Source of the DNA: a virus
Virus record (IMG/VR): IMGVR_UViG_3300017440_000001
Span: 1-64,000 of that record
Strand: one strand, 5' to 3'
Length of the DNA: 64,000 nt
Position 1 is the stretch's first letter; every line of letters starts with the position of its first letter. Below are positions 20,311-21,567 of the stretch, one piece after another. The translations under genes and the position numbers were made by a program. The notes below the pieces were generated by a model that saw nothing but the letters and a program-made list of their open reading frames with translations, was not told where the DNA came from and ran no database searches.

Positions 20311-20724
20311 TTGCAATTCAACATCATTCGCGTGGTTTCGAGCCGTGAATCCCTCGTTGCGGAGAAGCTGAACGCGATCGAGGGTGTCACTGCTGCCGAT
20401 CCTGGCTTGGGCGGCTATGTCTACGTTAACCTTGACGATGAGAACCTAGCGCAGAAGGTCCGTAAGACGTTCGGGTTCATCAAGTTCGTGATGAGTGGGC
20501 CGAAATACGCCGTCGTTGATTATACGCCGCCAGAGCCCGAGAAGCCGAAGGAGATCCCCGTGTTCGAAAAGGGATTTCCCGTTTCGGTAGTGGATGGCCC
20601 TTTCAAAGGGCAGAAAGGAATCGTCGCCTCACAAGACGGCGATCAAGTCGAGGTCAGTATTCAGATGTTCGGGAAGTTTGCGCTTTTGCGAATGAGCGTT
20701 GATTGGATTGAAATTAGCTCTTGA
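20311..20724 (+). CDS. NusG/RfaH-like protein (NGN + KOW)
   Basis: KOW block GFPVSVVDGPFKGQKGIVAS...VEVSIQMFGKFALLRMSVDWIE. NGN-like IIRVVSSRE...GYVYVNL. Start uncertain: TTG 20311 after GGAG, or GTG 20269. Confidence 0.65.
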   Translation: MQFNIIRVVSSRESLVAEKLNAIEGVTAADPGLGGYVYVNLDDENLAQKVRKTFGFIKFVMSGPKYAVVDYTPPEPEKPKEIPVFEKGFPVSVVDGPFKGQKGIVASQDGDQVEVSIQMFGKFALLRMSVDWIEISS

Positions 20725-20749
20725 CAAACGCCTTAAAATCGTCTATACT
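20721..20749 (+). promoter_or_regulatory. near-consensus sigma70 promoter TTGACA-N17-TATACT
   Basis: The -35 contains the NusG-like stop TGA 20722-20724. No CDS follows for about 0.7 kb. Confidence 0.75.
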
Positions 20750-20901
20750 ATACCACGCTAAAGGTTGCTCGCTACAACAGGTCTGGTCTCCTGCCTGTTC
20801 CCTGCTTTGAGTCTAAGACCTGAAAGCCTCCCGCCTCCCCTTGAATGGGTTTGAGGCAGGCGCGCCCGCTTGATAGCTGCCCTCTCTCCGGCGATTCAAG
20901 C

Positions 20902-20914
20902 GGGCCTCTAATTC
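20902..20914 (+). repeat. 13-mer GGGCCTCTAATTC, copy 1
   Basis: Exact repeat of 21131-21143. Immediately 3' of a 10-bp helix. Confidence 0.9.
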
Positions 20915-21130
20915 ACAGGTCGCCTATAAAATGGCGTCTGCCAATCGTGCCAGATCCCCGTGGCAAGGGCACGACAACCGTTTGAGTCTTGCGTAACGCG
21001 GACGAGGTTGAAAGGGGAGTTATTGCCTATGCACATAAACGGCACGGTTCATATCTTGCTCAGTCTGTGTGGGCGAGACAGCCTTGATCGCCCGAGGCTG
21101 TATAAATATCAGGCGGGGCGAAAGCCCCGT

Positions 21131-21143
21131 GGGCCTCTAATTC
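21131..21143 (+). repeat. 13-mer GGGCCTCTAATTC, copy 2
   Basis: Exact repeat of 20902-20914. Immediately 3' of the GNRA hairpin. Confidence 0.9.
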
Positions 21144-21465
21144 TTCTCTCCATAGGCAAGCCTTATGGAATAGCTAGTCGGATGCGCTGGAGCTTCTTTG
21201 CAATGTCGCTTGATCGACATCAAGAGCCAAGGCCGACTAGCTTACTTTTTGAGTGGGAATGATGAAGCGCGCCAACCCAGAGGCGTCGGATTCTAGGGGT
21301 AGGAGCTATGTTTTGGTTGAATAGCACAATGCAACCGCCCCGCTCAATTCAAATCAGGACGTTCGAGGCTTGGTAACGATGTCCTCTTGAGGCAGTGACT
21401 CCGATGGGACTGCCACGCATAGAGCCAATGACTTTCGGATTGGTTGGCTCCGTCCTGATACTATT

Positions 21466-21540
21466 CGCAGGGTAGCTCATCGGTAGAGCGCTGAGACCAT
21501 TGTCCAGAGGAAGTCGGTTCAATTCCGGCCCCTGCAACCA
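21466..21540 (+). tRNA. tRNA with CAU anticodon triplet; initiator-like acceptor/T arm, non-canonical anticodon arm; CCA encoded
   Basis: Acceptor CGCAGGG/CCCTGCA with a C1-A72 mismatch. D arm GCTC-ATCGGTA-GAGC. T arm GTCGG-TTCAATT-CCGGC. 3' end GCAACCA. Anticodon arm CTGAG-ACCATTG-TCCAG has an A-C mismatch, C33 and U37. Confidence 0.7.
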
Positions 21541-21542
21541 AT

Positions 21543-21567
21543 AAAAAAAAGGCCCCGAAGGGCCTTT
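21543..21567. terminator. bidirectional intrinsic terminator
   Basis: A8 run, GGCCC-CGAA-GGGCC, then TTT. Lies between the convergent tRNA locus and minus gene 21570-21758. Confidence 0.8.

Follow-up and report, generated by a model that had tools for sequence, protein, structure and literature searches.

What is encoded where a near-consensus promoter reads into about 710 nucleotides (nt) of phage DNA that hold no evident gene? The question is raised by positions 20756-21465 of a 64,000-nt stretch of DNA, positions 1 to 64,000 of the IMG/VR virus record IMGVR_UViG_3300017440_000001 (hereafter the window), where such a locus lies between a NusG-like gene and the small terminase gene terS. The window covers nearly all of a 66,075-bp metagenomic contig (ENA ERZ27250520). 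An earlier note, made from the letters of the window, had proposed a promoter-driven, non-coding and densely structured phage RNA at this place, and both the folding statistics and the covariation in relatives now bear this proposal out. We consider it very probable that the locus encodes a genuine, highly structured non-coding RNA on the plus strand. Comparison between phages further argues that this is a real, new and modular phage RNA that falls in no known RNA family.

The comparison draws on eight related loci found by protein and DNA-pattern searches: L001, L002, L003, L016 and L017 from IMG/VR, and L008, L011 and L048 from JGI metagenomes. The untranslated stretch downstream of the promoter, which we call the leader, measures about 710 nt in the window and about 440-920 nt in the relatives. 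Its 5' domain is called A and its 3' domain E in what follows.

Folding, covariation and coding status

On the plus strand, the minimum free energy (MFE) of 20756-21465 is -272.3 kcal/mol (z = -3.43), a value as low as none of 20 shuffled sequences reached, and the minus strand of the same 710 nt folds with z = -2.01. The long-range pairing of 5' and 3' regions that appears in the full-length MFE structure was rejected, because its partner region, domain D2, is missing in most relatives. Beyond folding energy, it is the comparative evidence that we regard as decisive for a structured RNA. Over the first 118 nt past the promoter, the window and L001-3 share 96.6-98.3% identity. In the same comparison, identity in the neighboring NusG-like gene is 85-91%, and about 80% of the differences fall at codon position 3; the conservation of domain A exceeds that of the synonymous sites of this gene.

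In an alignment of domain E fitted to the model, pairing holds in 99.5% of cells, and both partners have changed in 10 of the 30 pairs; in slid controls this number is 0-1. For hairpin H3 of domain A, a plain MAFFT alignment has 98.7% of cells paired, many of them as G·U, and both sides change in 7 of the 11 outer pairs. The helices first proposed from the window by eye therefore covary clearly. When domain E is folded separately in seven versions, the same four-way junction is obtained every time. In L016 and L017, the 5' part of domain A has an identity of about 60%, and independent folding still gives the same architecture. Since G·U pairs are frequent in the covarying helices, the plus strand is taken to be the RNA strand; read on the opposite strand, or formed in a cruciform, they would become A·C mismatches, which favors an RNA over a DNA element.

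Transcription of the leader would start near 20756, from a sigma-70-type promoter (TTGACA-17-TATACT, 20721-20749, plus strand) that the earlier note had already picked out and to which a promoter scan assigns 11 of 12 consensus matches. The promoter is conserved in all seven relatives whose sequence reaches that region, with 12 of 12 matches in L017, and the stop codon of the NusG-like gene falls within its -35 hexamer. Its extended motif, TTGACAAACG-N5/6-AAAT, recurs at a second plus-strand promoter at 17014-17042, upstream of the primase gene (TTGACA-17-TATGGT, with TTGACAAACG-N5-AAAT), which is also seen in L001 (at 558) and L003 (at 727). The pair points to one promoter class, or to an operator that both have in common.

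The relatives likewise uphold the view that the leader contains no credible coding sequence. In a comparison across them, no open reading frame (ORF) of the leader is conserved in frame or in length; the leader ORFs have no Pfam or PHROG match, and public gene calls on the source contig place no gene between the NusG-like gene and a minus-strand gene of 62 amino acids (aa). The longest candidate, a 100-aa ORF with a GTG start (20960-21262), runs across domains that relatives lack or have replaced; L001 and L003 are among those lacking them. Similarities between leader ORFs are short fragments spread over both strands and several frames, which is what shared nucleotide modules would produce, and a 5-nt length difference within H3 shifts the reading frame between versions. 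Protein-like conservation was looked for across the relatives and none was seen: there is no in-frame ORF with a third-position bias, unlike the neighboring NusG-like gene. ORFs of 30-100 aa do exist, as they do mechanically on both strands, but it is extremely unlikely that either the 100-aa frame or a small conserved peptide accounts for the locus.

Domains, linkers and tRNAs

The earlier note had proposed a large structured RNA. A single large fold does not survive the comparison: the RNA is a string of self-contained domains, each with its own closing helix and separated from the next by AU-rich linkers, and between relatives the interior domains have been lost, exchanged or put in another order. 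All domain coordinates given below are on the plus strand of the window.

Domain A (20754-20905) is always present and always first. Its 5' part (20754-20827) consists of a short helix P1 (20757-59/20825-27), a helix P2 (20762-72/20804-21) flanked by AAAG strands, and an inner hairpin (20776-20799). Hairpin H2 follows at 20830-20860 (CCCGCCUC...GAGGCAGG, with an inner 3-bp stem). Its outer eight pairs are 91% paired in seven sequences, and its inner stem reads CCC/GGG in sequences of the window type, with CGC/GCG in its place in L016 and L017. The covarying stem H3 (20864-20905) is a perfect 10-bp helix (20864-20873/20896-20905) capped by a CU-rich loop of 8-9 nt (CUCUCUCC in the window), which is kept CU-rich in all lineages. 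At the H2/H3 junction stands a palindrome, GGCGCGCC (20859-20866), whose central CGCG is kept in L016 and L017.

The junction of A with the next domain carries a first copy of the linker motif GGGCCUCUAAUUC (20902-20914), found at the same junction in L001-3, L011 and L048. At the DNA level this is the duplicated 13-mer of the earlier note, GGGCCTCTAATTC, which indeed occurs exactly twice in the 64-kb window (20902-20914 and 21131-21143). The optional domain B (20915-21073), with a conserved core at 20939-21022, is present in L002, L011, L017 and L048 and absent in L001, L003 and L016. The core is 94-95% identical across lineages (window 20939-21022; L017 1822-1905), against 76-81% for the other shared domains, a difference that would reflect either recent transfer or unusually strong constraint. 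The CCCC of its hairpin loop and a downstream GGGG could form a pseudoknot. Domain C (21074-21130), also optional, combines a hairpin ACAGCCU/AGGCUGU with the GNRA hairpin GGGGC-GAAA-GCCCC (21115-21128); it is common to L001 (98%) and L002 and absent in L003. Read on the minus strand, the hairpin of domain C looks like a terminator (window 21129->21114). The second copy of GGGCCUCUAAUUC (21131-21143) marks the C/D junction, where relatives have GGGCCUGAAUUG; overall, the linkers of relatives read GGGCCUGAAUUG, CUUAAUUAC or UUUGAAUU.

Two further optional domains precede E. D1 (21144-21245) is closed by a 10-bp helix (21172-81/21233-42) that encloses CUUGAU-CGAC-AUCAAG; this helix, that of H3 and the GNRA hairpin had all been described as perfect, correctly so. 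The 3' half of D1 is common to L008, and in L017 a tRNA-Pro replaces D1. D2 (21246-21351) is a four-way junction with a 9-bp closing helix (21249-57/21339-47) and three hairpins. An RNAalifold consensus of the window, L008 and L017 (81% identity) contains 32 pairs, one of them compensatory and the others kept. Domain E (21352-21464) is again a four-way junction. The closing helix reported earlier as 8 bp (21354-21361/21451-21458) is present, but it is 9 bp long (21353-61/21451-59), and it encloses the hairpins Pa (21365-86, loop GGUAAC), Pb (21391-21414) and Pc (21422-50). The Pb loop, UCCGA, is complementary to the Pc loop, UCGGA, and L002 has UCAG/CUGA, that is, one covarying pair; it is suggestive, at this strength only, of loops that may kiss.

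Domain E comes last in every relative except L016, which lacks it. Between the two ends, L003 is devoid of B, C and D1 and L001 of B; in L011 the B core is followed by a domain C', part of which stands ahead of the B core in L048; and L016 runs from A to tRNA-Trp, a novel domain and tRNA-Pro. Junctions of exchanged domains fall at the AAUU-type linker, and this repeated linker is probably the site where domains recombine.

Such junctions, together with the exact duplication of the 13-mer at them, might speak for an element that acts as DNA: a pac/cos region with terminase-binding repeats, or a recombination hot spot with the 13-mer as its crossover site. The position directly upstream of terS, and a terS N-terminal DNA-binding domain that is itself swapped in the window, would suit this explanation. 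Linker recombination may well explain the mosaic, but it leaves the 97-98% conservation of domain A unexplained; the consensus promoter that reads into the locus is conserved, and compensatory changes keep the helices of the locus, including the G·U pairs discussed above. The large terminase is of the Pfam Terminase_3 type, usual in headful packagers, whose pac site is within or adjacent to terS and much smaller than 0.7 kb. As the covariation is specific to RNA, a DNA-level role is very unlikely as the main explanation.

Downstream of E, the window carries the tRNA that the earlier note had placed at the end of the locus. It is a tRNA-Met(CAT) at 21466-21540 on the plus strand, the one tRNA gene that ARAGORN finds at the window locus, and it is also recognized by the Rfam tRNA model (43.5 bits against a threshold of 29). 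The tRNA is initiator-like, with a C1 x A72 mismatch and an encoded CCA, and its acceptor and T arms are presumably close to those of E. coli tRNA-fMet. Its anticodon stem deviates by an A·C mismatch and a G·U pair, position 33 is a C, and its 43.5 bits compare with 58-62 for the tRNAs of relatives. No relative has a tRNA at this slot after E, which makes it specific to the window; five are without any tRNA, and two, L016 and L017, carry tRNAs elsewhere within the leader (tRNA-Pro in both, tRNA-Trp in L016). The earlier alternative of an RNase P-released tRNA leader would therefore explain the window but not its tRNA-less relatives. Nor is there a fixed 0.7 kb unit with a tRNA and a terminator at its end, as relatives run on into terS.

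The shared slots raise the possibility of a decaying tRNA array, in which cloverleaf-like domains would be dead tRNA genes, or functionless junk, between the promoter and terS. D2, E and D'2, an alternative domain of relatives, each consist of a closing helix and three hairpins, and the window tRNA-Met is itself deviant. This explanation is nevertheless improbable: conservation exceeds that of synonymous sites in the neighboring gene, the stems covary and the loops stay fixed, and the tRNA covariance model finds no match in D2 or E at E <= 10 (20600-21700).

The same search bears on the known RNA families. A cmscan against all 4227 families of Rfam 15 was applied to the window with gathering thresholds, to 20600-21700 with a limit of E <= 10, and to L001, L002, L011, L016 and L017 with one of E <= 1. 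It returned tRNA only, in line with the view that no known family could be assigned. The GOLLD and ROOL models gave no match at any of the three sensitivities. We therefore hold it scarcely credible that the locus is a divergent member of a described family (GOLLD, ROOL, group I or II intron, tmRNA, RNase P RNA, 6S RNA or phi29 pRNA), in spite of a context that resembles those of GOLLD and ROOL. Both are phage RNAs near tRNA islands; GOLLD, one half of which is conserved and the other variable, sometimes has tRNAs in its linker (PMC12286853). The resemblance suggested by the earlier note thus stands for organization but not for membership. The RNA described here is phage-encoded, has several hundred nt of dense structure with a conserved and a variable part, and has tRNAs adjoining it or in its variable linker region; the window, L016 and L017 all have this phage location with tRNAs beside or inside the linker. 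Differences are equally clear. GOLLD is universally conserved in 3' and less so in 5', while here A, in 5', is the most conserved, E is usual and the center varies. The domains are autonomous and reorderable rather than parts of one global fold, and the RNA is the 5' part of a terS transcription unit.

The terS transcription unit and its surroundings

In all eight relatives, the leader is followed by an AU-rich spacer of 45-70 nt and the ATG of terS, with no terminator between them. There is little doubt, in our view, that in a small clade of uncultivated phages of about 66 kb the terS transcription unit begins, next to its promoter, with this untranslated leader. Domain E ends 45-70 nt ahead of the terS start region, which is AU-rich and unstructured, and does not overlap the ribosome-binding site. 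In the window, terS (21861-22322, plus strand; Pfam Terminase_2, PHROG terS) is followed by its own terminator (22322-22339) and by about 2 kb of small minus-strand ORFs (22338-24592) before terL (24788-26185), an arrangement shared by L001. A terminator and opposite-strand genes directly after terS reduce the unit to promoter, leader and terS, and the 2 kb of minus-strand ORFs that part terS from terL make terS monocistronic.

The window differs from its relatives in what lies between tRNA-Met and terS. A GC hairpin, AAAGGCCC-CGAA-GGGCCUUU (21548-21567, read on both strands), is the terminator of the minus-strand 62-aa gene, with an 8-T tract. It had been called a strong bidirectional terminator, which holds for the minus strand and is overstated for the plus strand, because the long T tract serves the minus strand only: the hairpin is listed as terminator-like for that strand alone, and on the plus strand, where its tail is UUUGAUUAG, it is a weak or moderate one. 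Read-through into the window terS is therefore plausible. The hairpin is part of a movable cassette (21541-21810), made of the GC hairpin, the small minus-strand gene and a minus-strand promoter (TTGACA-17-TATATC). In L003 (4450-5291), a cassette whose ends are the same and which contains one or more minus-strand genes stands between the NusG-like gene and the leader promoter. Antisense promoters also occur in relatives: L017 has TTGACA-18-TATAGT (11 of 12 matches; 2470->2441, minus strand) between E and terS, facing the leader, and L001 has a weaker one at 5121->5093 (minus strand).

In the window, the tRNA-Met and hairpin are accompanied by a swapped terS N-terminal domain. The window TerS and that of L001 (5145-5567) share only the last 25 or so codons (window 22251-22328), and the N-terminal DNA-binding domains are unrelated, of the Terminase_2 type in the window and of helix-turn-helix type in relatives, which implies an exchange of packaging specificity.

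The neighboring genes identified with Pfam and PHROG are those of a phage: a primase-helicase, the NusG-like gene (20311-20724), terS and terL. The best matches of the large terminase, all below 60% identity, are in Xanthomonas and Rhizobium phages and in uncultivated viruses, so that no isolated phage is close. A blastn search of 50,697 phage records with the locus gave no match. Exact and degenerate DNA patterns of domains A and E retrieved only the five IMG/VR contigs named above, plus two additional fragments from JGI, and nothing from 185,579 species genomes. The window's own TerS, used as an IMG/VR query, found no relatives. Among 28 more distant relatives of the L001-type TerS, there were no leader tRNAs and no matches to the domain E model, and most have a short gap upstream of terS in a crude scan of ORF gaps. 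A further candidate locus, L004, was rejected as a relative, its scaffold-like protein having matched via a low-complexity peptide.

The gene upstream of the promoter (20311-20724, plus strand; 137 aa) is a divergent member of the NusG/Spt5 family with NGN and KOW domains (Pfam KOW; PHROG 'transcription antiterminator'). Its protein matches the NCBIfam models of NusG, UpxY, RfaH and LoaP weakly, all far below cut-off. An AlphaFold model (predicted local distance difference test, pLDDT, 81) has NusG, Spt5 and RfaH as top Foldseek matches. At the sequence level the protein is an orphan, with one 50% cluster among 1.8e9 representatives and no tblastn match in the 50,697 phage records. The gene lies just upstream of the leader in five of the seven relatives with visible upstream DNA; it abuts the promoter in the window, L001, L002 and L048, and stands one cassette away in L003. 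An obligate partnership with the leader is unsupported, because L017 lacks the gene at the syntenic place. The ops element GGCGGTAGnnTG has no plus-strand match with <= 2 mismatches in 20750-21570, and its count over the whole window is that expected by chance; no plus-strand match to boxA (UGCUCUUUAACAA-like) with <= 3 mismatches occurs in the leader. GGA motifs of the CsrA type amount to about 10 sites by eye in the 710 nt, roughly as expected by chance.

Processed array or cis-acting leader

What might such an RNA do? Our preferred reading, to which we give about an even chance, is that of a phage RNA and tRNA cassette array, with a GOLLD/ROOL-like organization in the absence of homology, that is processed into stable trans-acting RNAs. 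Starting at the near-consensus promoter, the host sigma-70 RNA polymerase would produce a single long precursor that is left untranslated. RNase P, together with 3' processing, would then release the tRNAs, and enzymes of the RNase E type would cut the AU-rich linkers. The leftover domains would persist as one or several stable structured RNAs and act in trans through conserved apical loops: the CU-rich loop of A-H3, the GGUAAC of E-Pa and the UCCGA/UCGGA pair of E-Pb/Pc. The upstream NusG paralog would plausibly keep the polymerase moving through this hairpin-rich untranslated stretch into terS. Untranslated RNA is known to require protection from Rho (PMC7819879).

The array would then be an 'ornate RNA plus tRNA' locus, organized like GOLLD/ROOL and like the T4 tRNA/stable-RNA cluster and homologous to neither. 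In the T4 cluster, tRNAs are co-transcribed with the stable RNAs C and D and released by processing, which likewise brings tRNAs and small stable structured RNAs together in one phage unit. The domains described here are larger, they are exchanged between close relatives, and the unit continues into a protein gene.

Less probable, though a serious contender, is a purely cis-acting terS leader, in which A would modify the polymerase or protect the mRNA, E would tune terS, and the interior domains and tRNAs would be passengers. The leader directly joins terS in relatives with no intervening terminator, the weak plus-strand hairpin of the window makes read-through plausible there as well, and the parts that stay constant are precisely the two ends, one next to the promoter and the other next to terS. 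In one variant, A would load the adjacent NusG paralog in the fashion of UpxY or LoaP. Specialized NusG paralogs are often encoded beside their target and act in its 5' leader, including leaders of adjacent operons (PMC7819879), and the NusG-like gene does stand beside the promoter here and in most relatives with visible upstream DNA. A NusG-family gene next to a long untranslated 5' leader is indeed what this locus has in common with the UpxY, LoaP and RfaH-ops systems; it departs from them in lacking a plus-strand ops (and boxA), in a protein below NCBIfam cut-offs, in a short unit, and in the absence of the gene at the L017 place.

In the other variant, A would act like the put RNA of phage HK022. 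As with put, a conserved structured RNA begins right at the promoter, and in relatives no terminator separates the leader from terS. The put RNA is about 70 nt long, has two stem-loops and promotes read-through of downstream terminators, whereas domain A is about 150 nt long, has no terminator to overcome in relatives, and would be severed from the polymerase by tRNA excision. Lambdoid phages offer another parallel in their late leader, pR'-6S RNA-tR', and in Stx phages tRNA genes lie downstream of pR'. Both cases have an antiterminator-type gene, a strong promoter and an untranslated leader with possible tRNAs ahead of late or packaging functions. The gene described here is NusG-like rather than Q-like, the leader has 3-4 times the length and contains conserved domains that covary, and in relatives there is no terminator within it.

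We favor the processed array over the cis-acting leader because L016 has two tRNAs between A and terS and no E, so that tRNA excision would detach A from the mRNA; because E, where present, stays clear of the terS start region; because the optional domains are themselves strongly conserved, as the B core illustrates; and because the terminator and opposite-strand genes right after terS leave no long operon in need of processive antitermination.

Several points weigh against the array. The RNA is, physically, the 5' untranslated region (UTR) of terS in relatives, uninterrupted by any terminator, and a cis-only role fits this equally well. Its RNA ends, processing and stability are those that we infer, and a literature search on the JGI sample numbers gave no hint that they stand for metatranscriptomes. 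The family amounts to about nine sequences, which fall into three lineages and all come from environmental assemblies, and the covariation counts are therefore not independent events; the alignment of domain E, being fitted to the model, leans towards it. No purine tract complementary to the CU-rich H3 loop exists within the window. Finally, the NusG-like gene was not found on the L016 or L017 contigs, and L017 has an HNH-like ORF at its syntenic place.

A more far-reaching version of the processed array can be put forward tentatively. The locus would represent an undescribed class in which a fixed 5' domain and a fixed 3' four-way junction bracket exchangeable, autonomously folding domains and tRNAs, serviced by the phage NusG paralog and acting in trans rather than simply tuning terS. 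If this possibility is true, the RNA, once released, might for example form an assembly of RNA only or of RNA and protein that loop-loop contacts hold together, or serve as a packaging-linked RNA. The phi29 pRNA is likewise a structured phage RNA tied by position to the packaging machinery, with complementary loops that could kiss; here, there is no Rfam match, the TerS/TerL pair is an ordinary one, and the loop-loop pairing comes down to a single covarying pair.

Few large ornate phage RNAs are known, GOLLD and ROOL among them, and the RNA described here is an unrelated one with the same habits, phage-borne and mixed with tRNAs. Should it prove to be a cis-acting leader only, it would still make an unusually elaborate 5' UTR for a packaging gene. 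The physical link to terS and the phage NusG paralog alongside provide testable handles, and the conserved loops on covarying stems are likely interaction surfaces. Whole folded domains and tRNAs are swapped and reordered between phages that are about 90% identical, which suggests that structured RNA domains may behave as mobile cassettes.

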